Assembly: GCA_045132235.1 (NCBI GenBank)
Contig: JBGURX010000026.1
Span: 18,175 to 82,174 of the forward strand
Direction of reading: 5' to 3'
Length of the DNA: 64,000 nt
Source of the DNA: Bacteroidales bacterium
GTDB lineage: Bacteria; Bacteroidota; Bacteroidia; Bacteroidales; WCHB1-69
Part shown: piece by piece, positions 2,433 to 64,000 of the stretch
Numbering within the stretch: the first letter of the stretch is position 1
Layout of the letters: every line of letters begins with the position of its first letter
Notes under the pieces: generated by a model
Told to the model about the DNA's origin: nothing
Databases searched by the model: none
Seen by the model: the letters and a program-made list of their open reading frames with translations, nothing else
Made by a program: the position numbers and the translations under genes

Positions 2433-4853
<2,421 letters not shown>

Positions 4854-4892
4854 AAATGTTGTAATTTTGCGACTCAAATTTTAATATCCAAA

Positions 4893-6167
4893 ATGATGAA
4901 AAAACTGGCTGTTGTATTATTAGCGTTGTTATTGGCAACAACGCAAAATTTTGCGTCTTTACAGGCACAGGACTTAAACCATTACAAACAGGTAGTCAAG
5001 GAGCTGGCTTCCGAGAAATACCAAGGGCGCGGCTATGCTTTCGATGGTGCCAACAAGGCGGGCAGATACTTGGAAAAAGAGTATAAAAAAGCAGGCGCTG
5101 ATGAGGTGGTCTGCCAGCCGTTCACCATCAATATCAATACGTTCCCCGGCAAGATGGAACTGTCGGTGGACGGGCGTGCGTTGACGCCGGGCGTGGATTT
5201 CTCCATGCGCGAGTACTCCCCGGGCGTGCACGGCACCTACAAGCTCTATTATGTTGACACCAACAATTTCGATGCCGAAAAGATGTTCGCCGACCTGTTG
5301 AAACCCGAGTACAAGGATTGCTTTGTGGTGTGCGATTTCTTCTTCTCATACAATCATTACCAAGACTTTAAGAAAATATGGGGCGGCGACAGCTACCCCA
5401 ACGCGGGAATGATTCAGACATGGGAGCCGCTGCTGAAGTTCTACAAGGCTTACGGCGAGCGGGTGATGGGCAAACCTGTCATCTGGGCCACCTCCGATTT
5501 TCCGAAAGATGCCAAAAGCATTACCGTTGACATTGACAACAAAATGATGGAGAATGTCGAGCTTTTCAATGTCATCGCCAAGGTGGAAGGCAAGCGCCAC
5601 GACAGCTGCTATGTCTTCACGGCGCACTACGACCATCTCGGCAACCTCGGCAAGGATGTCTATTATGCGGGCGCCAACGACAACGCCTCCGGCACCGCCG
5701 CCATCGTGACACTGGCCGCCTACTACGCTCAGAACCGTCCCGAGTACGACATGTACTTCCTCTCCTTCTCGGGCGAGGATGCCAACCTGCGCGGCTCCGA
5801 GTACTATGTGGAGCATCCCGTCGTGCCGCTGACGCAGATCAAGTACCTGTTCAACATTGACATGATTGGCGACAACAATCCGGTGCAGTACTGCGAGGTG
5901 AGCGACGAGGGACTGCGCGGCTACGACCTGATGGAGACCATCAACAAGGAAAAACGATATTTCAAGGGACTGAACCGCGGGGAGTTGGCCGGCAACAGCG
6001 ACCACTATCCCTTTGCGTTACAGCATGTTCCGTGCATCCTCTTCGAGAACGAGGAGGGCGATGCATTCAAGTACTATCACACCACCTTCGACACTTACGA
6101 GAATTTCCTCATCGACTCCTACGAGCCGATTTTCAGGTTGATAAGGGATTTTGTGGAGAAATATTAA
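4893..6167 (+). CDS. M28 family metallo-aminopeptidase
   Basis: Signal peptide; AHYDHLG, GANDNASG, SGED, NIDMIG, SDH, YHT motifs. Confidence 0.9.
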   Translation: MMKKLAVVLLALLLATTQNFASLQAQDLNHYKQVVKELASEKYQGRGYAFDGANKAGRYLEKEYKKAGADEVVCQPFTININTFPGKMELSVDGRALTPGVDFSMREYSPGVHGTYKLYYVDTNNFDAEKMFADLLKPEYKDCFVVCDFFFSYNHYQDFKKIWGGDSYPNAGMIQTWEPLLKFYKAYGERVMGKPVIWATSDFPKDAKSITVDIDNKMMENVELFNVIAKVEGKRHDSCYVFTAHYDHLGNLGKDVYYAGANDNASGTAAIVTLAAYYAQNRPEYDMYFLSFSGEDANLRGSEYYVEHPVVPLTQIKYLFNIDMIGDNNPVQYCEVSDEGLRGYDLMETINKEKRYFKGLNRGELAGNSDHYPFALQHVPCILFENEEGDAFKYYHTTFDTYENFLIDSYEPIFRLIRDFVEKY

Positions 6168-6184
6168 GAAACAGACGCATTCAG

Positions 6185-6211
6185 AACGGACGCATGCAAT
6201 TCGTCCGTTAC
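6185..6211 (-). repeat. REP-like hairpin between convergent genes
   Basis: Minus strand reads GTAACGGACG-AATTGCATG-CGTCCGTT; its GTAA contains the TAA stop of the FMN reductase. Confidence 0.65.
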
Positions 6212-6765
6212 GGTTCGTCCACGAATGCCACGAATTTGTCGGCCTGGGCTTTCAGTGCGGCGCGTTGTTCGTTGGTGAGGATCATGCGGCCTTCGGTCCA
6301 TGCCTCGGCATTGAGGGTGATGCCCGTTTGCGGGTCGGTCATTACATTGGCTTTGATGAAGATGAGCAACTCGGTGAGTTTTTCGCGGCATTTGCCGGTG
6401 GCCATTTGTCCGCCTGCCCCGCTCAGTGCCACCTTCTTGCCGTTGATGACGGTAGGCGTGGCATAGTCGTTCGCGACAACGGGGCGCGACAGCCAGTCGA
6501 GCACGTTCTTCAGGTGACCGGGGTAGCTGAAGTTGTATTCGGGGGTGAAGATCCAGATGCCGTTGGCCTGGGCCACCGTTTCGCGCAGTTGGGTTACGGC
6601 TGCCGGGGCGGGATGCTCAATGTCCTGATTGATAAAGGGTACATTCGTGTAATTCAGATAGGTTACGGATGCCTGTCCAGCCAAGTATTTCTCTGCCTCT
6701 GCGGCGAGCTGTCGGTTGAAAGAATCTTTTCTCAACGAGCCGACGATAAAAAGGATGTTTTTCAT
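6208..6765 (-). CDS. NADPH-dependent FMN reductase family flavoprotein
   Basis: GSLRKDSFN, TPEYNFSYPGHLKNVLDWLSR. Confidence 0.9.
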   Translation of the reverse strand: MKNILFIVGSLRKDSFNRQLAAEAEKYLAGQASVTYLNYTNVPFINQDIEHPAPAAVTQLRETVAQANGIWIFTPEYNFSYPGHLKNVLDWLSRPVVANDYATPTVINGKKVALSGAGGQMATGKCREKLTELLIFIKANVMTDPQTGITLNAEAWTEGRMILTNEQRAALKAQADKFVAFVDEP

Positions 6766-6796
6766 ATTATATTATTTTTGATAGTTAAATTCTAAA

Positions 6797-7021
6797 TTAT
6801 TCCTCGGATTTGTCCTGTTGGGACGATTTCCTAATTTGTTCAAGCCCTTGGTCAAAGAACCAAAATAAAATGGTAATGATTACGCTGCCTACCACTCCTC
6901 CAATGATGGCTCTACGCAAACTGAGTCCCGAGATCAACCAATCTGCCAGAAAGTATGCCACAGCAAGGACGACAAACATGATGAGGTAAACCACCCAACT
7001 TCTTTTCTTAAAAATATTCAT
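6797..7021 (-). CDS. small membrane protein (2 TM)
   Basis: 74 aa with two hydrophobic helices; upstream TATTTTTG promoter. Confidence 0.65.
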   Translation of the reverse strand: MNIFKKRSWVVYLIMFVVLAVAYFLADWLISGLSLRRAIIGGVVGSVIITILFWFFDQGLEQIRKSSQQDKSEE

Positions 7022-7116
7022 AACAACTATTATTTATGGATTGCAAAAATACGGAATAATTCCGATGAATTTTGGCTACAACTGTGCAAAAATGATGAGT
7101 TATAGACAAAAATAAA

Positions 7117-7362
7117 TTATTCGGGACGTTTGTTGTGTGGCGGACGACAATTTTTTCTGACAATCCATGCCAACAGGCCAATAATCACGACATTGCTTAT
7201 CAGCAGTGCTATTGCAAAACTGTTGATATGCATCCGGTAGTTTTGTTCGGTCAGTGCATATTGCCCGTCAAGTATTGCCGTAATCCACAATATCACTTCA
7301 AGGACGATGCCAGTGGCCAATATGGCAAACGCCAAGAACACAAATGATTTCGGGTGTTTCAT
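7117..7362 (-). CDS. small membrane protein (2 TM)
   Basis: 81 aa with two hydrophobic helices; lies 28 nt downstream of the GNAT gene. Confidence 0.65.
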   Translation of the reverse strand: MKHPKSFVFLAFAILATGIVLEVILWITAILDGQYALTEQNYRMHINSFAIALLISNVVIIGLLAWIVRKNCRPPHNKRPE

Positions 7363-7390
7363 TAGTTTGAGATTTTCTTTTAAAACGCTC

Positions 7391-7933
7391 TCAATGTGGA
7401 TTATATTGCACGTCGCCCCTCTCCAGCCGCATCACCCGCACCGGGCGGTCGGAGCCGATCTGGAGACGGCTGCAGCGGTTGATTGTGCCGGTGTCGCGGA
7501 AGCCGCACTTCTCCATCACGCGGCCGGAGGCGGGGTTGTCGGGGAAGTAGTCGCTCCAGATGGTGCGAAAGCCTTTCTGGTTGAAGCAGTAGTCGATCAG
7601 CAGCTGCAGTGCCTCGGTGCAGATGCCTTGGTTCCAGTAGGGGCGGGCCACCCAGTAGCCCGCTTCGGCATCGTTCTCGCCGATGTCGATGTTGCTCTCT
7701 CTGCAGGTGTAGTAGCCGATGCAGCCGATGGCCTCGCCGGTTGTCTTGAGCTCGATGGCCCAGATGTGGTCGCTGTGGAACACCGTGCGGATGATTTCGC
7801 GGCTCTCTTCCACGCTTTGGTGGGGCGGCCAGCCCGCGCGGAGACCCACCTCGGGGTCGGAAGCATATTGGTACAAGGTCTCGGCGTCGCTTTCACGCCA
7901 CGGCCGGAGCAGGATTCGGGAGGTTTGCATCAT
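7391..7933 (-). CDS. GNAT acetyltransferase, RimJ/RimL type
   Basis: T.RILLRPW..SDA, EAGYW...YWNQGI.TEA, NPASGRVMEKCGF. Confidence 0.92.
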   Translation of the reverse strand: MMQTSRILLRPWRESDAETLYQYASDPEVGLRAGWPPHQSVEESREIIRTVFHSDHIWAIELKTTGEAIGCIGYYTCRESNIDIGENDAEAGYWVARPYWNQGICTEALQLLIDYCFNQKGFRTIWSDYFPDNPASGRVMEKCGFRDTGTINRCSRLQIGSDRPVRVMRLERGDVQYNPH

Positions 7934-8061
7934 TGTTGGTTAGTTTGAGGATGCAAAGATACGATGTTCTTTTGGAAATAATTTATTCTAAAAGAACTAT
8001 AATTGAATCATATTTTAATAATAACTTTTTCAAAAACTTTAACAACTTTTAACCAAAAAAT

Positions 8062-8093
8062 TTTGGCGGTTCAATTTCTTCGTTGTACTTTTG
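8062..8093 (+). promoter_or_regulatory. canonical Bacteroidota sigma-A promoter for the 8161-10448 operon
   Basis: TTTG-N20-TACTTTTG. Confidence 0.75.
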
Positions 8094-8160
8094 CAGTCGA
8101 AAGTTATTGATAATCAAATTATTATTTTATTAAATTATAAAACTATTAAAAATTAGAGTT

Positions 8161-8829
8161 ATGGAAAAACTGATTGAAATTTTGAAAGAATTTGACAAAA
8201 ACCGTACAGCATCAATTAACTTAGGGAAAATATGGGATGAAGTAGAGGTTGGAAAATGTTTTCTCCCTTGTGCAAAGGAAATTCTATGTAATGGATATTT
8301 TCTTATTAACAATGAATACATTCTTGACCTTGGTTCCATTGAACTCTATTATCACGAAGAATATGACGGCGGCATAAAAGACGCAAAAATGTACCACACA
8401 AATGATAATTTACCCAAAAGTTATTGGGATAGAATTAAAAAGTATTCCCCTGAACAACTAACTTTGTTTTACAGGCTTATTATTGAAAACAAGGGATACC
8501 CTTATTTCAAAATTGGCAGCGTCAACCTTCACCAATCTGGAGTTGATGTCACTTTTGAGAAGAAGAAGCAATACAGAGCATCTTTCCTCATTCGCTCATA
8601 CAGAATGATGAAAAAAGAGGATATTAAAAGCAATAATGTTTTGTACGATCCTTGTTCGTCTCACCTATATGACGATATGAATAATGCGGGACTATTGTCT
8701 TTGGCTAATGGAAACACAATCAAATGGGTGGAATATCCAAAGGGTGGAAATGTAATACAATGTCCTCGTCGGAATTTAGACGAAAAACCTTGGCAGTTTA
8801 TGCTTGAGAACTTGAAAGAGATTAAGTAA
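8161..8829 (+). CDS. hypothetical protein, possibly divergent methylpurine-DNA glycosylase (MPG/AAG) fold
   Basis: AT-rich 222-aa ORF; IELYY / D..MYH / ASFLIRS / PRRN..KPWQF match in order the MPG motifs ETEAY / D.A.H / AVLIRA / RIG..PWRF (by eye). Confidence 0.5.
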   Translation: MEKLIEILKEFDKNRTASINLGKIWDEVEVGKCFLPCAKEILCNGYFLINNEYILDLGSIELYYHEEYDGGIKDAKMYHTNDNLPKSYWDRIKKYSPEQLTLFYRLIIENKGYPYFKIGSVNLHQSGVDVTFEKKKQYRASFLIRSYRMMKKEDIKSNNVLYDPCSSHLYDDMNNAGLLSLANGNTIKWVEYPKGGNVIQCPRRNLDEKPWQFMLENLKEIK

Positions 8830-8845
8830 ACATCTTTTTTTTCTT

Positions 8846-9676
8846 ATGCTCCCCGACTCCCTCACCAACACCGTTTTCCTCTCCGAATGGCTGCCGGAAG
8901 TGTGCCCCACGCTGTATCATAATCTTACAAAAGTACTGAAGGACAATGCCGTGTACTATCGGATTCTGGGCAATACCAACGACATCTGGTGCCGCGATTT
9001 TATGCCCATTCAGACCGATGAAAAACGATTCGTTTTCTATCAATACAATCCTGATTACCTGCAAGACAAGCATAAACGGCGATACATTACCAACGTAAAC
9101 CGTGTGCAGAACATCGATTTCCTTCGTCAGGCCGAAACGGCAAATCTGGACCTAGTGCTCGATGGTGGCAACGTGGTGAAATGCGGCAACAAAGTGGTGA
9201 TGACGGAAAAGGTGTTTGTGGAAAACAACAACCGGTCGCGCAACGAGGTGCAACGACTTCTGGAAGAGGCATTCCAGTGCGACATCGTTTTCCTGCCGTG
9301 GGACGAGAACGAGAAGTGCGGTCACAGCGATGGCATTATCCATTATGTGGGCGACAACCGCGTGCTGCTGACCAACTACGACGATCTCGACAAGACTTTT
9401 GCGCAGGCATTTCTGCGGATTTTGGAAAAGCATTTTGAAGTTATCCCACTGAAATACAATGTGAAACGGCAGCACGCCCGCAGTTGGGCATACATCAACT
9501 ACTCGCAAGTGGACAATCTGGTGCTTGTCCCGCAGCTGGGCATTCCCGAGGATGAACATGCTTTGGAGCAAATCAGCAAAGCCCTGTCAAATTGTAAAGT
9601 CGTTGGCATCCCGGCCTTGGAAGCCGTTCGCAAAGGCGGAGCATTGAATTGCATATCGTGGAATATTAAATTGTAG
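8846..9676 (+). CDS. agmatine/peptidylarginine deiminase family (pentein) protein, short type
   Basis: WCRDF, LDGGN, GHSDG, YIN, GGALNCISW (catalytic Cys). Confidence 0.88.
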   Translation: MLPDSLTNTVFLSEWLPEVCPTLYHNLTKVLKDNAVYYRILGNTNDIWCRDFMPIQTDEKRFVFYQYNPDYLQDKHKRRYITNVNRVQNIDFLRQAETANLDLVLDGGNVVKCGNKVVMTEKVFVENNNRSRNEVQRLLEEAFQCDIVFLPWDENEKCGHSDGIIHYVGDNRVLLTNYDDLDKTFAQAFLRILEKHFEVIPLKYNVKRQHARSWAYINYSQVDNLVLVPQLGIPEDEHALEQISKALSNCKVVGIPALEAVRKGGALNCISWNIKL

Positions 9677-9680
9677 AAAG

Positions 9681-10448
9681 ATGGAAAGCAAAAAAACAAA
9701 GAACAACCTCTATTCGAAAATGACCATTAAAGAATTGAAAGTGCTGGCCGAACAAGGCGATGCAGAGGCACAATTCAAGCTTGGAAATCGTTATAAACAA
9801 GGTAAAGGTGTAGGAAAAAACTTTCGGCAGGCTGTGGAATGGCTCACTAAGGCAGCTGAGCAAGGACATTCAGGGGCTCAAAACAATCTTGGAGGATGCT
9901 ATTTGTGCGGAAAGGGAGTGAAAAAGGACTATGCCAAAGCTGTTGAATGGTACACTCAATCAGCGGAACAGGGTGAAATGTTCGCCCAATTCAATTTGGC
10001 TGCTTGTTATTATAAAGGAACAGGAGTTGAGCAAGACTATAAAAAGGCCCTGGAGTGGCATTTCAAAGCGGCTGAACAAGGCGATTCGTGGTCGCAAAAC
10101 GATATCGGAATGTGCTATTTGAATGGATATGGAGTTGAAAAAGACCTCCGGAAAGGCATTGAATGGCTTACCTTGTCTGCTAAACAAGGGTTTTCCACTG
10201 CACAATTCAACTTGGCTATTTGTTTCAAGGACGGTGATGGCGTGGAACAGGATATGAAGAAAGCGGTGGAATTATATAAAAAAGCAGCGAAGCAAGGGAA
10301 TATGTGGGCCCAACACAATTTAGGGTGTTGCTACGAATATGGGGAAGGCGTTAGAAGGAACCACAAAAAGGCGGTGGAATGGTTCACGAAAGCGGCGGAA
10401 CAAGGAAGCAAAAGGGCGAAAAGGATGCTCGGGAAATTTCACAAATAA
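9681..10448 (+). CDS. Sel1-like repeat protein
   Basis: Six 36-aa AQxNLGxCY..GxGVxxDxxKAVEWxxKAAEQG repeats; no signal peptide. Confidence 0.95.
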   Translation: MESKKTKNNLYSKMTIKELKVLAEQGDAEAQFKLGNRYKQGKGVGKNFRQAVEWLTKAAEQGHSGAQNNLGGCYLCGKGVKKDYAKAVEWYTQSAEQGEMFAQFNLAACYYKGTGVEQDYKKALEWHFKAAEQGDSWSQNDIGMCYLNGYGVEKDLRKGIEWLTLSAKQGFSTAQFNLAICFKDGDGVEQDMKKAVELYKKAAKQGNMWAQHNLGCCYEYGEGVRRNHKKAVEWFTKAAEQGSKRAKRMLGKFHK

Positions 10449-17795: not shown

Positions 17796-19160
17796 TCATA
17801 TGGTTTCCAATTCAGGCAGGATTACGGAGTCCGTGCTATCTTTCTGAAGGAACATACAATAGTAAACAGGCATATATGTCACACCTTTCTTCCGTAGCAC
17901 ACTCCTTTCGTTGGAGAAGACAAGGGCGCGATCAATGCCATATTCCGGCGTATCAAGGAATTTTGTCAAGGCACTGTGTTCAGTGTAGTCTTTACCCGAC
18001 TTCACCTCTATCGGCAATACTTTCAAATGATTGTAATCGTCAATCAGAAAATCCACTTCGCCTTTCTGCTTGTTGTCATAATAATGGAGGTTGAATCCGT
18101 GGGCGTGCAACTCTTGTGCTACCACCGATTCATAAACCGTGCCTAGATTGATGCTTCTGAGATCTTGTAGCACAGCATTGACATTCAGACCATAAAGCAG
18201 ATTTGTCAAAATTCCGACATCGTTCAGGTAAAGTTTGACCAAGCGTTTTTGCTCCGATTCTACCAGAGGGAAGTGTGGGTTGCTGATGGCCAAGACCTCC
18301 AATGCCACTCCCGAATTTGACAAGTATTCAAATTCATCTGCATAATCTGTGAAATGCTTGCCGGTCTTATTTTCTATCTTTTTATAGACCATCCGCTTTT
18401 TTTTGTTTTCCAAGTTGCTCGGTATCAAATCATAAATGCGGCGGATTTTCAGTTTGTGCTCCTCATCGTATTGCGAAGCGTCGATACGGTAGAGTTCGTG
18501 AATGTTGTTGTGGATGCCTCGGACACGCACCATATTCCTGTCCTCCAAATAGGTATTGACTGCCTCTGGAAGCCCACCCACTAACAAGTAATACTGAAAA
18601 CGCTTCAACAAAAGATTGTGGGTGGCCTCATCAAGAGATTCTTCGCTTTGATAATGGTGACGGATATTCTCTATCCATTCTTTGTTGATGCCTGTCGCCC
18701 AAAGAAATTCCTCAAAATCAAGAGGATACATTTGCTTGATTTCTACACTGCCGATAGGCACAGATGGCGTTTGCGCCAAGGCTACTCCCAATTGTGAACC
18801 ACTGGCAATAAAACGGTATCGCCCCTCCTGACAAAGAAATTTAAGCATCGTCAGGAGGTGCGGATAGCTCTGTATTTCATCCAAAAAGACCAATGTGTCG
18901 GATTTGTCTCCCAGGGGCTTTGAGTAATAGTTGCTCAAGCGCATATACAAATCGGTAGTCGAATGTACGGTTGAGAACACTCGTTCTCCCTCTTTGTCCT
19001 CTTTGAGATTGATTTCCACAAAATGGTCAAACAACCGGTTGCCCACATAACGGATCAGATAGGATTTTCCAACCTGTCTTGCCCCATTTACCAACAGAAT
19101 TTTATTGTTCTCTTCTCGGAGAAACTGCTCAAGGTATTGAGTGAATTTGCGTTCCAGCAT
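17796..19160 (-). CDS. AAA+ ATPase (AAA_14) with DUF4143 PD-(D/E)XK-like C-terminus
   Basis: GARQVGKS, FLDEIQ, MYPLDFEEFL, GGLPE, KLYLNDVG, GEVDF..PIEVKSG. Confidence 0.9.
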   Translation of the reverse strand: MLERKFTQYLEQFLREENNKILLVNGARQVGKSYLIRYVGNRLFDHFVEINLKEDKEGERVFSTVHSTTDLYMRLSNYYSKPLGDKSDTLVFLDEIQSYPHLLTMLKFLCQEGRYRFIASGSQLGVALAQTPSVPIGSVEIKQMYPLDFEEFLWATGINKEWIENIRHHYQSEESLDEATHNLLLKRFQYYLLVGGLPEAVNTYLEDRNMVRVRGIHNNIHELYRIDASQYDEEHKLKIRRIYDLIPSNLENKKKRMVYKKIENKTGKHFTDYADEFEYLSNSGVALEVLAISNPHFPLVESEQKRLVKLYLNDVGILTNLLYGLNVNAVLQDLRSINLGTVYESVVAQELHAHGFNLHYYDNKQKGEVDFLIDDYNHLKVLPIEVKSGKDYTEHSALTKFLDTPEYGIDRALVFSNERSVLRKKGVTYMPVYYCMFLQKDSTDSVILPELETI

Positions 19161-57995: not shown

Positions 57996-58189
57996 TACTA
58001 TATTATATTGTAAATATGTCGGGTGCAAAATTACGAAATTTGGCCTGATTTCATGGGGGTGTCTTGCTAATGTTTTTCTGCGAGTTGCTGAATATTTTTT
58101 TTCTTCGTGAAAAAAATATTTTTATTTTCAGTGAATTAATCAAATTATTTTGCTACTTTTGCAAATTATTCAGTGAAACGAAATTTATA

Positions 58190-58252: not shown

Positions 58253-58446
58253 AGTTGTTAGTAATTAGTGTTTTGGTTTCATGACGTGGAGGGCTCTTCG
58301 TGGGCCCTCCTGACATGATGGTTCAACCAACTCTTCCGGCGCAGAGTGCGTGTCAAGTGAAAAAATATTTACTATTGTTCCTTTTTTGATTTTTGTTCCC
58401 CATTGTTTCTTCCATTTTATTATTGGTAGAATGAAAGAAAAGTTGT

Positions 58447-58523: not shown

Positions 58524-59222
58524 ATGACAGAAATTCCTGACGGACAGTGTATTAGTATGAATGCTGGAGCTAAAAGAAATGTTCCGGTCAGTTCCGTTTT
58601 TGCAAATGCCAAAGACGGGAAGTCGGTAGAGTATGCCCCCGCCGCGGCGCCTCTCCATTGGTTCCCCATCCGCGCCACCTACCACCGCGCACAGAAAGTC
58701 TATGACCGGCTGGTGGAACTCAACGACGGCCGCTACGAGCCCTACCTCCCCACACTTTGCAGCATCGAGTGCGCCGACGGCGGCAAAACCGGTCATCCGG
58801 AGCCGCAAGTCCGTACGGAGCCGCTCGACAAAGGACTGCTGTTCGTGCGCGCCTCGCTGCCCGACTACCGCCGGCTGTTGGAGACCGCATCGCAGGTGCC
58901 CGGACTGACACCCTATTACAACCACTTTGCCACCAACGAGTTCGGCCGCAACGAGCTGCTGATCGTTCCCGACCGCCAGATGGAGAGCTTCCGCATCATC
59001 GTCGAGTCACGCAACCATGACATCCTCGTTAACCAGACGCAGGTGCCGTCCCTCATCGAGGGCGACCATGTGGTGGTCACCGGCGGGGCCTTCGCCGGCG
59101 TGGAGGGCATCGTGATGAAATACCGCCACCAGAAACGCGTCTTCGTGCAGCTGCAGGGTGTCGGCACCTACGCCACCGCCTACATCCCCAGCGCCTTCTT
59201 GGAACGGAAAACGGAAAACTGA
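58524..59222 (+). CDS. upxY: UpxY / NusG-family transcription antiterminator
   Basis: HWF.IRATY.R, PL...LLFV, L.VPDRQMESF, KOW GD.VVVTGGAF.GVEG...KRVFV. Confidence 0.88.
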   Translation: MTEIPDGQCISMNAGAKRNVPVSSVFANAKDGKSVEYAPAAAPLHWFPIRATYHRAQKVYDRLVELNDGRYEPYLPTLCSIECADGGKTGHPEPQVRTEPLDKGLLFVRASLPDYRRLLETASQVPGLTPYYNHFATNEFGRNELLIVPDRQMESFRIIVESRNHDILVNQTQVPSLIEGDHVVVTGGAFAGVEGIVMKYRHQKRVFVQLQGVGTYATAYIPSAFLERKTEN

Positions 59223-59258
59223 AAACGGAAAATGTAAAGACGCAGTGCACTGCGTCTC
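59203..59258 (+). repeat. heptamer array + REP (left cassette boundary)
   Basis: AACGGAA AACGGAA AACTGAA AACGGAA AAT then GTAAAGACGCAGTGCACTGCGTCTC. Confidence 0.85.
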
Positions 59259-59268
59259 ATAGAAAATC

Positions 59269-61089
59269 ATGGGCCTTTACATCAACATAGGGAATGACGG
59301 CTTTCGCGCGGCGCGAAACGGTGAGTACATTGACAAGAGCGATTTGATTGAGCTTGTCAATGGTTCGCTGAATTCCGAGCGGCAGTTCATGTGCGTCAGC
59401 CGTGCCCGCCGTTTTGGCAAGTCGATGGCGGCAAAGATGCTGAACGCCTACTACGACCATTCGTGCCAATCCGAAGAGCTGTTCCGTGATTTGAAGATTG
59501 CCAAATGTCCTTCCTTCCCTCAGCATCTGAATAAATATCCTGTGCTGTATGTGGATATGACCAATTTCATCACCCGCTACAGGAATAGTGGTGATATGGT
59601 GCAACATATCCAGTCCGATATTCTGGCGGAGTTGAAAGAGGCCTATCCCAATGTGAAATACGGTACGAACGATGACTTGCTCTCGGCGTTGTATACCATT
59701 GTGCAACAGGCAGAACCGTCCAAGTTCATTATGATTGTGGATGAGTGGGACGCCATTCTGCGCGAACCCAACGCTGAATGTGATGAGGGCGAAAGGTATG
59801 TGGATTTTCTCCGTCTGCTTTTCAAATCGGGCAACTCGTTGTCGGTCTTTGCCGGGGTGTATATGACGGGAATTTTACCCATCAAGAAATACAAAACGCA
59901 GTCGGCGTTGAACAATTTTGAGGAATACACCATGATCTCGCCGGGTGAGATGGCGGCTTGTTTCGGCTTTACGGATGAGGAGGTTTCAGATTTGTGCAGT
60001 CGCCATAAGATTGACAAAGAGCAAATCAAACTATGGTATGACGGCTATCGGATCGGCGGTCAAGCATCAATCTACAATCCTTTGTCTGTGATCCGGGCGA
60101 TTCGCCGTCGGTACTGTGAAAGTTACTGGTCCAATACAGGTACGTACGAAACGGTGTCGCATTACATCAAGATGAATTTCGAGGGGTTGAAGGATGATGT
60201 GATTAAGTTGCTGGCGGGGGAACGCTGTAACGTGAATACCAAGAATTTCCAGAATGACCTGAATGTCATCAACAGCAAGAACGACATTTTTACGGTGCTG
60301 ATTCATTTAGGTTATCTTTCATACGACAGGGATACGAACGAGTGCTCCATCCCCAACAAGGAGATTGGCTTGGAGTTTGAAAATGCGGTGGAGGACACCG
60401 GATGGAATGTTATTTCGGATGCTTTGAAACAATCCGAGCAGTTGCTGCAATGGACGATTGCCGGCGATGCTGAACGGGTGGCCGATGCCATAGACCGCAT
60501 CCATTCCGACAATACCGGCATCTTGCAGTACAATGATGAAAATTCGCTGGCGTGTGTGCTTGCTTTGGCGTATTATGCGGCGAAGAACAAATATGCAATC
60601 ATTCGGGAACTGCCGACAGGCAAAGGTTTTGCGGATTTGGTGTTGGTTCCTCGCCGGGAAGTGGATATGCCTGCTATCGTCCTTGAATTGAAATACAATC
60701 ATTCTTCCAAAACCGCCATTGACCAGATCAAGGACAAACGCTATACCGATTTGCTTATGGACTATGTGGGAGAGGTGGTTTTGGTAGGGGTGAACTATGA
60801 CAAGCGAAGCAAGCGGCACCAGTGTAGCATTGAGAGGGTTGCAAAAGGATCCCAAAGCGTAGGTTGTAATGTCCCTGAAAATGTCCCTGAAAATGTCCCT
60901 GAAAAAAGACAAAGGATGATTATAGAAAAGATTCAATCTGATCCTTTCGTTACCATTCCAAAATTAGCTATGATTTGTTCTGTGAATGAAAAAACCATCA
61001 AAAGGGATATTCAACAACTCAAATCTCTCGGTCTTCTCACCCGCATCGGCCCGGCCAAGGGCGGCTGGTGGAAGGTGGAGAAGAATTGA
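59269..61089 (+). CDS. AAA-ATPase-like protein with PD-(D/E)XK nuclease domain and C-terminal wHTH
   Basis: YIDKS, SRARRFGKS, VDEWD, WYDGY, YNP.SV, GFADLV...LELKY; tail TIKRDI..LK..GLL.RIG..KGGWW. Confidence 0.9.
   Translation: MGLYINIGNDGFRAARNGEYIDKSDLIELVNGSLNSERQFMCVSRARRFGKSMAAKMLNAYYDHSCQSEELFRDLKIAKCPSFPQHLNKYPVLYVDMTNFITRYRNSGDMVQHIQSDILAELKEAYPNVKYGTNDDLLSALYTIVQQAEPSKFIMIVDEWDAILREPNAECDEGERYVDFLRLLFKSGNSLSVFAGVYMTGILPIKKYKTQSALNNFEEYTMISPGEMAACFGFTDEEVSDLCSRHKIDKEQIKLWYDGYRIGGQASIYNPLSVIRAIRRRYCESYWSNTGTYETVSHYIKMNFEGLKDDVIKLLAGERCNVNTKNFQNDLNVINSKNDIFTVLIHLGYLSYDRDTNECSIPNKEIGLEFENAVEDTGWNVISDALKQSEQLLQWTIAGDAERVADAIDRIHSDNTGILQYNDENSLACVLALAYYAAKNKYAIIRELPTGKGFADLVLVPRREVDMPAIVLELKYNHSSKTAIDQIKDKRYTDLLMDYVGEVVLVGVNYDKRSKRHQCSIERVAKGSQSVGCNVPENVPENVPEKRQRMIIEKIQSDPFVTIPKLAMICSVNEKTIKRDIQQLKSLGLLTRIGPAKGGWWKVEKN
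60868..60903 (+). repeat. 12-bp in-frame tandem repeat (NVPE x3)
   Basis: AATGTCCCTGAA x3 in the linker before the HTH. Confidence 0.9.
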
Positions 61090-61171
61090 AAATTGAAAAC
61101 GGAAAATGTAGAGACGCGATTTATCGCGTCTCACGGAGAGACGAACGTAAAGACGTGCTGTAGCGCGTCTC
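61084..61171 (+). repeat. heptamer array + two REPs (right cassette boundary)
   Basis: AATTGAA AATTGAA AACGGAA AAT then GTAGAGACGCGATTTATCGCGTCTC, and GTAAAGACGTGCTGTAGCGCGTCTC. Confidence 0.85.
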
Positions 61172-61172
61172 A

Positions 61173-61298
61173 TTGAAGAACGACGAACTGCGGAAGAAGT
61201 ATGGCTCGACAGCGGCAAAACAATTGGCAGACCTAAAGAAGAAGAAGTTGGTTGAATACCGCGGTGCCAATAAGACCGGTGGATATTATGTGAAATAA
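61173..61298 (+). pseudogene. remnant of a C-terminal winged-HTH tail
   Basis: LKNDELRKKYGSTAAKQLADLKKKKLVEYRGANKTGGYYVK*; begins right after the REP. Confidence 0.65.
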
Positions 61299-61537
61299 CC
61301 TGAACGTATGGCCGATAGGTATTGATTCCCCACCTCAGCCGATGTTATTCGCAACTTCCCCGTTGCGCAGTGAATGATAGCCAAAAATGTTGTATTTTGC
61401 AGAATTTAATTGAGTTATAAAGTGCAATGCTTTTAGATTTTGTTTAACGGACTTCGCAATGTCTGAAAGTATAACGTGAAAATATTAAAAATAGAAGTCG
61501 CCTAAATTATTTTTCTCCTCTTCTTTGTTATTTATTT

Positions 61538-62330
61538 ATGGATAAGAAATATAAATGAAAGCACAAGAAGACTATATTTGTCCGTCCAAAACAAGTGTGG
61601 CAAACTTTCTGATATGGTAGATTAGACAACGATGAGAAAAAGACAACTCTATCACCAATTAGATGGAAAGATTCAAGAACCCATAGATGCATTCTATGAG
61701 TATAGCATATCAAAGTTATGTCCTTATCATGGAGGGAGAAGTCTTTTCAACTGGTTACATGTGATGTTTCAATTGGAATTGATTATATGTACAGTACTAT
61801 CTTTGATATGGATTTTCAAGGAAATCTTGTAAAAATGAAAAAAACACATATCACTATTTCCACCTAAATTTTATGATAAAACCCTCTGAAAATTTGGACG
61901 ATTAAAAATATTTAGCTATAAAAACAGTTCCCAGCATTGGCCAATCATCACATATGGCATTATTAACCAAGAAAGAGAAAGTTTAAACTCTTCTATTAAC
62001 AGAACACCTACATATAAGATTGACAATGTGCCTCAGTTAAGATATGTTACAGAAAAAAATCCCCATGGGTTTGATGGTTTATGAGGCATTAACTAAAATG
62101 CTTGACAAAGACTGTTCAGTCTGCACTGAAATCATTGACATGCATAATATAAGGTTTAATGAAGATATTCGAGTTAAAGTCTCCAATTTAGTAGGTTTGA
62201 TGCAGAACACATGAAGAATTTCCTGTTTAGAAAGTTGTGGAAAATGATTAAGAACATTTGGGAAAATATTGGAGAGTTCAGCTTGTATTTGTTTTGGACT
62301 CATTGGATGTATTTGATTTGTAATGAATGA
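61538..62330 (+). pseudogene. decayed AT-rich gene (multiple frameshifts and stops)
   Basis: Successive protein-like plus-strand fragments in different frames, leading up to the phosphoesterase start. Confidence 0.4.
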
Positions 62331-62339
62331 CACGCTCGT

Positions 62340-63770
62340 ATGAAAAAACACTTCACAATCTTACACATTTCCGACTTACATAAGCCAAAGAATTGTAACC
62401 TTAAAAATCTGTTTTATTCTCTACAGACTGATTGTGAGGCTTATACAAAAGATGGCCTATCCAAACCGGAAATAGTAGTAATCAGCGGTGATATTGCCGA
62501 AGGATCAAAAGATGTTGGCTTCAAAGCCAAAGCCTCTATCAAATCCCAATATGCAGAAGCAAAAGTGTTCTTGGAAAAACTAACGGATTATTTTTTAGAT
62601 GGCGACCGAAGCAGGTTAGTGATGGTGCCTGGCAATCATGATTATTGCTATAAGGATTCTAAAGAAAGCATGACACTTTCACCGGAGATAAATGCTAAAG
62701 ACGACTTTAATAGATTTAAAACAGCAGACCCTGAGGTAAGATGGAATTGGGAGGATAAACATTTCTATCATATTACTAACAATGTACCTTATGAGGCTAG
62801 GTTCGATTTGTTCAAGGAATTTTATAATGACTTTTATGCTGGAATAAGAAAGCTGCCGGTGGATTTGGATAGGAATTCATATATCGTTGAGTTAAACAAT
62901 TATCAGATTGCCTTTATATGTTTCAATAGTTGTCACCGTCTTGACCATCTTAACCCGATGGGATGTATTTGCCCTGATGCTATCGCTCAAGTTCATCCTA
63001 AATTGGTTAACCTAAAAAATATGGGATTCTTGTTGGTGGGAGTTTGGCATCATCATGTCTCAGGGTTACCTGTAGAGAACAACTACATGGACCATCGCAT
63101 ATTGGATGCGATGATGAGAGAGGATATCAAAATGGGGATGTTTGGCCATCAGCATGTCAGTACGGCCATCCAAGAGTATAGTGACATAACCTCGAAACGA
63201 AGCATTTTGTTGATTAGCAGCGGTAGCCTTTATGGCAATCGACATCAGTTGGTGACAGGTGTGCCACGGCAATACAATGTTGTCGGAGTTGAGTTCGACA
63301 ACGAAGAGGTGACAGTACAATTAAATGTTAGAAAAGATAATAGCCAGTATGGTTATGACATCCCCCAATGGATGCAATCGCCCATCGGAATAAAGAACCT
63401 TCCCAACTACGAGCATAAGCTACGCATAGAAAAGCCAAAGATTGAGTATGTTGTTGAAGATATTGAGAAGATGGTAATGAACACCCAAAACTATGATTTG
63501 GCTTGTGTGCGGCTGAAAGGAACGGGGTTGGATAACGAACTGGTGCTGAAATATTTCGACAATTACATATCTAAGGTAAATGACAAAGCATTACTTAAGA
63601 AGCTTATCATTGAGCCAAGGACTTCTGTTCAATATTTGACAGCACTTGATACGGCTGTTTCAAATAAAGACAAGGAATGGACATTGGCGTTATTGAAACT
63701 TGTTGAGTTTCAAACAAATACTTCTCCTTATGTGAAAGAATTGTTGAAACAAGCCAAAAAACTTATTTGA
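62340..63770 (+). CDS. calcineurin-like metallophosphoesterase with C-terminal helical extension
   Basis: HISDLH, SGDI, PGNHD, WHHH, FGHQH; AT-rich. Confidence 0.9.
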   Translation: MKKHFTILHISDLHKPKNCNLKNLFYSLQTDCEAYTKDGLSKPEIVVISGDIAEGSKDVGFKAKASIKSQYAEAKVFLEKLTDYFLDGDRSRLVMVPGNHDYCYKDSKESMTLSPEINAKDDFNRFKTADPEVRWNWEDKHFYHITNNVPYEARFDLFKEFYNDFYAGIRKLPVDLDRNSYIVELNNYQIAFICFNSCHRLDHLNPMGCICPDAIAQVHPKLVNLKNMGFLLVGVWHHHVSGLPVENNYMDHRILDAMMREDIKMGMFGHQHVSTAIQEYSDITSKRSILLISSGSLYGNRHQLVTGVPRQYNVVGVEFDNEEVTVQLNVRKDNSQYGYDIPQWMQSPIGIKNLPNYEHKLRIEKPKIEYVVEDIEKMVMNTQNYDLACVRLKGTGLDNELVLKYFDNYISKVNDKALLKKLIIEPRTSVQYLTALDTAVSNKDKEWTLALLKLVEFQTNTSPYVKELLKQAKKLI

Positions 63771-63771
63771 T

Positions 63772-64000
63772 ATGGAAGAGAATTCAAAATTCAAGATACA
63801 ACTCGACAGGGTGCTTGAGGTGCTGTGTAGTCAGATTTACGACTCGCCTCTGGCCTTGCTGCGTGAAAATGTCCAGAATGCATACGATGCCATTCTGATG
63901 CGACAGTATGTTGACAAGTCGGATACGTATAAGCCACAGATAATAATAACAATCGATGCCAATCAGCTATCTATTAGCGACAACGGAATAGGAATGAATT
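63772..64000 (+). CDS. HSP90-like GHKL ATPase, 5' part (truncated by the window; absent from the ORF track)
   Basis: MEENSKFKIQLDRVLEVLCSQIYDSPLALLRENVQNAYDA...ISDNGIGM; starts 1 nt after the phosphoesterase stop. Confidence 0.88.
   Translation, partial: MEENSKFKIQLDRVLEVLCSQIYDSPLALLRENVQNAYDAILMRQYVDKSDTYKPQIIITIDANQLSISDNGIGMN

Follow-up and report, generated by a model that had tools for sequence, protein, structure and literature searches.

A metallophosphoesterase gene paired with an HSP90-like ATPase gene in a Bacteroidales genome: a probable mobile defence module of a predicted kind

Two abutting genes at the right end of the window

The stretch of DNA analysed here, hereafter called the window, comprises 64,000 nucleotides (nt) from a Bacteroidales bacterium (NCBI GenBank assembly GCA_045132235.1, contig JBGURX010000026.1, positions 18,175 to 82,174 of the forward strand, that is C26:18175-82174 in our notation), whose genome amounts to 2.42 Mb in 64 contigs. 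Near its right end the window carries a gene for a metallophosphoesterase (MPE), followed on the same strand by the beginning of a gene for an HSP90-like ATPase of the GHKL superfamily, and this pair of genes is the subject of the present analysis. We followed the second gene into the onward contig DNA, referred to as L002, in which a coordinate equals the window coordinate minus 59825. The two genes, with product lengths in amino acids (aa), are:

62340..63770, plus strand: MPE (P0001), 476 aa; an open reading frame (ORF) with a Pfam Metallophos match, predicted to be an effector of the Calcineurin-CE type.
63772..64000 in the window (first 76 codons), plus strand: HSP90-like GHKL ATPase (P0002), 771 aa; the gene runs on to L002:6262, window-equivalent 66087.

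An initial annotation of this DNA had placed a GHKL-type ORF one nucleotide behind the MPE gene, and this proved correct: the ORF starts at 63772, 1 nt past the MPE stop codon, contains the motifs that had been quoted for it and stays open up to the end of the window over 76 codons. Extension of the contig, which had been proposed as a check, yielded the full HSP90-type ATPase of 771 aa (L002:3947-6262).

The phosphoesterase matches Pfam Metallophos over residues 5-273 (E 1.9e-10). Its five metal motifs (D12/H14, G50-D51, G98-N99-H100-D101, H237-H238 and G269-H270-x-H272), which the initial annotation had read from the same 476-aa protein, are invariant in an alignment of 23 homologues from related loci. 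In this alignment the tail of about 130 aa past the catalytic match is poorly conserved, P426 being the sole invariant residue beyond residue 344. At E ≤ 0.01 the MPE is matched by only two NCBIfam models, DS9_1_antiphage (‘anti-phage phosphoesterase’; E 6.9e-14, 51.5 bits with a cut-off of 420, profile positions 194-447 of 486) and DS8_antiphage (E 1.1e-13, 49.9 bits with a cut-off of 790, profile positions 1-286 of 994), and it also matches the PADLOC candidate PDC-S60 (E 2.4e-10). The first model is matched by all 23 family members (best E 9.9e-21), the second by 15 of the 23. Judging by these profile comparisons, the enzyme has its closest affinity with the anti-phage MPEs DS-9A and DS-8, and it represents a distinct subfamily within the clade of these conflict effectors.

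Another, weaker resemblance leads to the small subunit of PolD. The NCBIfam model of the PolD small-subunit exonuclease is weakly matched by 8 of the 23 MPE family members, and a search of the PDB with the MPE profile returned weak PolD small-subunit matches only (6knb at E 0.001); phmmer with the MPE against the PDB gave 0 matches. The family itself is large: when 1.84 billion representatives were searched with its profile, 721 clusters were obtained at E ≤ 1e-30. The best 150 of these 721 representatives are each no longer than 520 aa, so there is no fused form among them.

By sequence, the likeness of the ATPase to HSP90 is limited to its N-terminal ~200-215 residues. HATPase_c_3 is the one Pfam domain matched (E 5.7e-12), and the scores of curated families are not reached, neither that of NCBIfam HtpG (E 4.3e-20, 71.7 bits with a cut-off of 371), nor that of the NCBIfam HSP90 family PRK14083 (E 2.1e-26, 92.6 bits with a cut-off of 455). 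When the ATPase profile was compared with the PDB, the N-domains of HtpG, TRAP1 and Grp94 were found (E 4e-19 and weaker). The GHKL motif residues E32, N36, D70 and GxxGxG at 104-109 are invariant in the ATPase alignment, and an alignment with the HtpG-like ORF of the same genome (45002-46915, minus strand) shows which HtpG residues they correspond to; R306 is presumably the catalytic arginine of the middle domain. The identity to this host ORF is 22% over 211 aa and is confined to the N-domain, in agreement with the initial annotation, which had regarded the ATPase as distinct from the host htpG.

An AlphaFold2 model of the ATPase was obtained from a 14-sequence alignment, with a mean predicted local distance difference test (pLDDT) value of 79.7. 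Foldseek matched this model to the full-length HSP90 Hsc82 (E 3.9e-22, about 650 columns), and in the VIA comparison full-length HSP90s gave Z scores of 23-24 with about 480 aligned residues, the alignment covering model residues 8 to ~558 and the matched chains up to ~690. The HSP90-PP5 complexes 8gae and 8gft were also among the structural matches. Because the structural alignment is full-length, the ATPase is predicted to hold the complete HSP90 fold, composed of the N-terminal ATPase, middle and C-terminal dimerisation domains.

Beyond this fold the protein goes on for some 210 aa (residues ~560-771), which form an extra C-terminal domain. The last 212 residues can be aligned in 27 loci of many phyla, with a mean column identity of 50% and 18 invariant columns, and the domain modelled alone was predicted confidently (pLDDT 85.3). 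It gave no usable structural match in Foldseek (best E 0.09), in the wide VIA search (best Z 3.6) or in the Atlas search (best score 0.75). Among the 120 ATPase homologues listed, whose size range takes in the ~1250 aa that an MPE-ATPase fusion would have, none is longer than 784 aa, and a search of homologues of 1351-3855 aa likewise found no fused forms.

Conservation and genomic context of the pair

For a view of the pair across prokaryotes, one genome per species was scanned for relatives of the ATPase, which gave 251 stretches, with 80 loci kept. In 76 of these the ATPase gene is immediately preceded, on its own strand, by an MPE homologue; the remaining four loci are truncated, the ATPase gene starting no more than 1.1 kb from the end of the contig. 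The 80 loci span Bacteroidota, Acidobacteriota, Proteobacteria, Planctomycetota, Patescibacteria, Bacilli, Dehalococcoidia and an archaeon, and MPE and ATPase are separate genes wherever upstream DNA is present (76/76). The gene junction was measured in the 42 loci, out of the 76 with an MPE, that passed a filter for a full MPE C-terminus: in all 42 the ATPase ORF starts between -26 and +9 nt from the MPE stop codon, with a 4-nt overlap in 19 of them. Clustering of 579 neighbour ORFs revealed no third conserved gene, the largest cluster being formed by type I restriction-modification (R-M) subunits from 5 loci. The pairing of MPE and ATPase is far beyond chance, and the conservation of the pair, which the initial annotation had put forward as a check, is seen across phyla, with the two ORFs abutting or overlapping.

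Some copies are broken. The MPE is split into two ORFs in L013, L025, L027, L034, L042, L048, L054 and L055, and the ATPase gene in L056 and L061; these may be frameshifted or decaying genes, or else assembly errors.

A prediction of the complex, also suggested at the outset, was run with ATPase residues 250-771 and the whole MPE, together with three controls. The score of the MPE-ATPase complex had a median of 0.52 (runs 0.55, 0.32 and 0.52), as compared with 0.00 for the best control, and in these runs the partner pLDDT was at least 81, with at least 52% of the contacts shared between runs. Of 157 solved complexes 116 attain the mark set for this score, as do 2 of 215 mismatched pairs, and the band up to 0.60 holds 18 of the 157 solved complexes and both passing mismatches. 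The prediction thus gives weak support to the idea that the two proteins may form a complex.

The neighbourhood of the pair is rich in defence genes. Our neighbour set consisted of 126 proteins of at least 180 aa that lie within two genes of the pair in 65 loci (one of the original 127 was dropped by the size limit), and 46 of these 126, in 29 of the 65 loci, match PADLOC families at E ≤ 1e-5. The matches include R-M, Gabija GajA/GajB, pAgo with TIR-APAZ, HmaC (Hma), RdrA, PtuA, DrmD, DpdF, AbiEii, SoFic and several PDC/HEC candidates. The control, drawn from proteins no shorter than 180 aa that are encoded elsewhere in the window, gave 3 of 41 (Fisher’s exact p 2.8e-4), which bears out the enrichment in defence islands that the initial annotation had wished to see checked. 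In this control scan a 454-aa protein encoded at 17799-19160 of the window (minus strand) gave a very strong match to PADLOC PDC-S01 (9.5e-183).

The spread of the pair is patchy. Of 151 other genomes from the host family, two have a homologue (E ≤ 1e-60), at 44-45% identity, and of 18 within the genus none has one; copies that are 94% identical are present in metagenomes. On viral contigs the ATPase gene was found in 5 loci, with the MPE seen upstream in 3 and the start cut off in 2. One such contig (L088) carries the pair (6496-10331) as cargo in a Mu-like prophage, between Gp27 and Mor/GemA/Gam/Mu transposase, and of the further viral-contig loci one is near a phage portal gene and one beside a serine recombinase and ParB/RepB genes. 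Neither PADLOC v2 nor NCBIfam release 20 has a model claiming the pair, which means that annotation based on these two libraries overlooks it.

One might suppose that the pair has no role in conflict at all and is a housekeeping or stress chaperone-phosphatase couple acting on cellular clients, like eukaryotic PP5-HSP90. A complete HSP90 architecture and the presence of the HSP90-PP5 complexes 8gae and 8gft among the structural matches would suit this idea, and calcineurin-like enzymes include protein phosphatases. Such a function is nevertheless improbable for genes with so patchy a spread (2/151 other family genomes), which lie in low-GC DNA, are carried by prophages and mobile elements, have defence-rich neighbours and encode an MPE nearest to anti-phage MPEs, in a host that has its own HtpG-like gene.

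A composite cassette inside a polysaccharide locus

In the host genome the pair is part of a longer cassette, to which the following features also belong:

61889..62339, no strand assigned: 5' region of the cassette, AT-rich and non-coding, which includes the probable left boundary (from guanine-plus-cytosine (GC) content and contig comparison).
L002:6272-6871, downstream of the pair: P0003, 199 aa, Mrr_cat-like (from PF04471 in its homologues).
L002:6875-7327, downstream of the pair: P0004, 150 aa, DUF3226/DUF4276 TOPRIM-like (from weak Pfam matches).

The initial annotation had described the DNA as AT-rich, and this holds beyond the MPE gene: GC content is 0.32-0.43 over ~L002:1500-7500 (0.33-0.43 across the cassette), as against 0.45-0.61 in the flanks, and in the non-coding stretch 61889..62339 it is 0.32-0.37. 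An Rfam scan of this non-coding stretch returned no family. Neither promoter-like sites (20 vs 21.9 in shuffles), nor terminator-like sites (6 vs 4.8) were in excess.

The genes for P0003 and P0004 lie beyond the end of the window (L002:6272-7327, window-equivalent 66097-67152). P0003 itself has no Pfam match; PF04471 (Mrr_cat) is found in 14 of its 75 homologues, one of which is named a restriction endonuclease. P0004 weakly matches DUF3226/DUF4276 as well as PADLOC mad4 (1.1e-5), AbiLii and HEC-01B, and TOPRIM-like E-G-x-x-D and D-x-D motifs can be recognised in it by eye. MADS is a multi-gene set with a methyltransferase, the MAD3 ATPase and the MAD4 nuclease, and membership of P0004 in it was rejected, as mad4 is the only MADS family that it matches and none of mad1-3 or mad5-8 is matched among the four cassette proteins. 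The two genes were likewise rejected as core components of the system, both being absent from all 80 genome loci.

Metagenome contigs L093 and L094 carry all four cassette genes in unchanged order. At the DNA level they resemble L002 exactly over 2514-7323, and L003 does so only over 2514-6263. In L095, P0003/P0004 homologues are found without the MPE-ATPase pair, beside an AAA_21 ABC ATPase, and P0003 and P0004 homologues are adjacent in all four metagenome loci with a clear P0003 homologue. They look like a separate small nuclease module whose usual ATPase partner is lacking in the host genome. Contigs of run X3 match L002:2064-4589 and 6034-7421 and diverge at both outer ends (the left one corresponding to window position 61889), which places the right boundary of the cassette near L002:7421, and contigs of run X2 go on into the cassette flanks; the two runs were compared as contigs, and the parts they leave uncovered carry no evidential weight. 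In view of the extents of the X3 and X2 contigs, the limits of similarity to L093, L094 and L003 and the gene content of L095, the four genes behave as a composite of two modules in a low-GC cassette of about 5.4 kb. The four-gene cassette of L093 is flanked by genes for a TIR_2 protein (694-1269) and a Schlafen AlbA_2/HATPase_c_4 protein (7194-8603).

The two downstream genes bear on an alternative that keeps the defence role of the pair and directs its action at nucleic acids. In this scenario the MPE would be a Mre11/SbcD- or PolD-DP1-like nuclease that attacks the DNA or RNA of the phage, and the HSP90-like dimer an ATP-gated clamp on nucleic acid, as in MutL/MORC-type GHKL proteins, with further nucleases added by the Mrr-like and TOPRIM genes. 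The weak PolD small-subunit matches (8/23 MPEs; PDB 6knb at E 0.001) point this way, the pair is joined to Mrr_cat-like and TOPRIM proteins in two lineages, and the GHKL defence proteins Tiamat and MORC act with nucleases on DNA, according to a passage of the Tiamat preprint (10.64898/2026.09.30.754977). On the other hand, the best and most consistent matches of the MPE family are those to the nucleotide-targeting DS-9A/DS-8 clade (23/23 vs 8/23), the modelled ATPase is of the HSP90 type in all three domains and not of the MutL/MORC type, and the Mrr and TOPRIM genes occur in none of the 80 genome loci. We regard a mechanism of this sort as unlikely, if still worth serious attention.

Upstream of the cassette and on the same strand there is a NusG/KOW-like gene (58524-59222, weak Pfam matches), and between the two lies a gene at 59269-61089 (plus strand) for a 606-aa protein with AAA-ATPase_like (3.2e-25) and PDDEXK_9 (7.5e-08) matches and a C-terminal DeoR-type helix-turn-helix. 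Downstream, again on the same strand, follow capsule-type genes, including FdtA, a hexapeptide transferase, DegT, a flippase and NeuB, and the host polysaccharide locus as a whole covers window positions 58524-64000 together with L002:7695-17940. Similar arrangements are found elsewhere. The order of genes in L003 is GT4, DUF6016, the pair, PDC-M30A, DUF5131, DegT and AAA_21+RloB; in L033 it is LicD, GT2, the pair, DUF6016, a Schlafen-like gene, DegT and Bac_transf; and in L095 it is Epimerase_2, the Mrr-like gene, TOPRIM and AAA_21. In Bacteroidales polysaccharide loci, genes of the defence type are found again and again in the orientation of the operon, and they might be expressed together with the capsule genes. 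Upstream of the NusG/KOW-like gene we noticed a 15-nt AT-rich inverted repeat (58091-58105 / 58355-58369, 87% complementary, arms 249 nt apart), which could be due to chance; invertible capsule promoters are known in Bacteroides.

As the pair lies inside polysaccharide loci in the host genome, in L003 and in L033, it could be imagined as a capsule-locus accessory with a part in polysaccharide synthesis or its regulation. We consider this highly improbable. Most of the 80 loci have neighbours unrelated to polysaccharide synthesis, and 5 is the largest number of loci in which any neighbour family recurs. The resemblance of the DNA to L093 and L003 stops exactly at the cassette genes, and the cassette of run X3 is in a different context. 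A role in capsule synthesis was rejected on the strength of the unrelated neighbours elsewhere and of the similarity that ends at the cassette.

Relation to known systems and a proposed mechanism

Nicastro, Burroughs, Iyer and Aravind reportedly predicted in 2023 systems in which HSP90-like (and HSP70-like) NTPases are coupled to the nucleotide-targeting effectors Calcineurin-CE and HD-CE. The Tiamat preprint (10.64898/2026.09.30.754977, October 2026) speaks of ‘putative antiphage Hsp90-like proteins’, citing Nicastro et al. 2023, and the effector is described in the citing passage as the N-terminal domain of the HSP90-like protein, whose C-terminal domains are fast-evolving and modular. According to the corresponding passage of the ParA preprint (10.64898/2026.10.19.760177), an HSP90- or HSP70-like NTPase can stand in for the STAND NTPase in tripartite immune architectures. 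Because of these two passages, both citing Nicastro et al. 2023, an HSP90-like NTPase with a calcineurin-like effector is to be regarded as a kind of system already predicted in print. The initial annotation had not recognised the pair as a named system; this stands as regards PADLOC and NCBIfam, which have no model for it, and has to be qualified as regards its novelty, given the prediction that the citing preprint passages report. A literature search for an experimental test of such a pair, or for a named system comprising it, returned the citing preprints only.

The present pair resembles the predicted HSP90-coupled Calcineurin-CE systems in having a CE-clade phosphoesterase effector with intact metal ligands and an HSP90-like NTPase as the proposed switch in place of a STAND NTPase, and its gene order, MPE followed by HSP90, mirrors the order within the fused proteins. 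It differs in two respects, as far as the citing passages describe those systems: the effector is encoded here by a separate gene and there forms an N-terminal domain, and the C-terminal domain of the ATPase is conserved here, the variable part being the C-terminal tail of the MPE.

Among anti-phage systems with related phosphoesterases, DS-8 (metallophosphatase-NACHT) and DS-9 (metallophosphatase with HAD) are validated, and the metallophosphatase catalytic residues of DS-8 and DS-9A are required, as stated in the passages of PMC13092281 on which we draw. The PUA-Cal-HAD module of E. coli ECOR28 is described as causing depletion of deoxynucleoside triphosphates (dNTPs). On account of their matching architecture we read DS-9 (DefensePredictor) and PUA-Cal-HAD as the same system; this reading is our own, and the passages of the two texts do not state it. 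The MPE studied here shares with this system a homologous domain of the Calcineurin-CE type with intact catalytic metal ligands, and it differs in being without a PUA domain, as the DS9_1 match begins only at profile position 194 of 486, and in its partner, which is an HSP90 paralogue; the neighbours include no conserved HAD partner, and Pfam scans of 14 loci found no HAD families. With DS-8 and PDC-S60 it has in common a homologous MPE domain and the joining of an MPE effector to an NTPase switch, the difference being that in DS-8 a NACHT P-loop domain is fused into a protein of ~990 aa, whereas here a 476-aa MPE is accompanied by a second gene for a GHKL/HSP90 protein.

As to the ATPase, its three predicted domains align with those of housekeeping HSP90/HtpG and the ATP-binding motifs are kept, but it is an accessory, mobile protein, always paired with an MPE, and has the extra C-terminal domain of ~210 aa. 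To Tiamat and MORC/paraMORC it is similar as a GHKL-superfamily ATPase in a defence context, with a weak match to PADLOC TmtA (19.4 bits, residues 14-124). By Pfam it has neither DUF3684 nor a C-terminal NOV_C/PD-(D/E)xK nuclease, and its fold past the ATPase domain is that of HSP90 and not of Tiamat/MutL. Membership in Tiamat was rejected, since the match concerns the N-terminal ATPase only and DUF3684 and NOV_C are missing.

Taken together, the pair is very probably a mobile defence module of the predicted kind. We further think it fairly probable that it constitutes a self-contained, horizontally mobile two-gene anti-phage module, in which a nucleotide-hydrolysing MPE effector is joined to a dedicated HSP90 switch or sensor. 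The initial annotation had proposed a two-component conflict system with a dedicated chaperone-like ATPase, which conservation and defence context support; starting from the conserved gene pair with its intact motifs and HSP90 fold, and from its residence in defence islands and a prophage, we infer a complex, a substrate, a trigger and an anti-phage phenotype along the following lines. The MPE, with its intact catalytic motifs of the Calcineurin-CE type, would be the effector, and the dedicated HSP90 paralogue with its extra C-terminal domain would act as an ATP-driven switch or sensor. The two proteins would reside in a complex in which the HSP90-like dimer holds the phosphoesterase inactive. 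The part that senses an infection cue might be the additional C-terminal domain of the ATPase or else the variable MPE tail, and an ATP-dependent conformational change would then free or activate the phosphoesterase. The freed enzyme would hydrolyse nucleotides (dNTPs or NTPs, or NAD+) and halt phage replication, probably by way of abortive infection.

Several observations weigh against this reading of the pair. The extra C-terminal domain of the ATPase is conserved and not fast-evolving, which fits a sensor of phage proteins less well. The MPE scores far under the cut-offs of DS-9A and DS-8 (51.5 vs 420 and 49.9 vs 790 bits), and the weak PolD small-subunit matches, seen in 8 of the 23 family members, mean that a nucleic-acid target may be considered as well. 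No PADLOC match was obtained in 36 of the 65 neighbour loci, the control for the enrichment comes from a single genome, and some of the 126 ORFs counted as neighbours may be false predictions in DNA of high GC content. Moreover, the complex score falls in a band that is more often wrong than right unless the pairing is already likely.

A bolder version of the nucleotide-hydrolysing module, which we put forward as a speculation with rather little probability, is that the private HSP90 paralogue serves as an immune chaperone. The toxic nucleotide-degrading MPE would be its latent client, to be released when the conserved C-terminal domain, for which no structural match was obtained, binds either a small molecule that arises from infection or a phage component that is itself conserved. 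In Bacteroidales the module might be switched together with capsule type, a suggestion prompted by its repeated embedding in capsule operons, where it has the orientation of the operon and follows a NusG/KOW-like gene. If true, this would amount to a chaperone-client logic of activation, distinct from that of STAND, CBASS and toxin-antitoxin systems.

HSP90 is among the best-studied chaperones, and its role in prokaryotic immunity has so far been a prediction of comparative genomics. The MPE-ATPase family offers a compact and abundant two-gene model for that prediction, with 721 MPE clusters and 251 genome stretches, intact active sites and signs of mobility and of defence-island residence. 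It could reveal whether a chaperone-type ATPase can replace the STAND NTPase as an immune switch, and what a Calcineurin-CE effector degrades.

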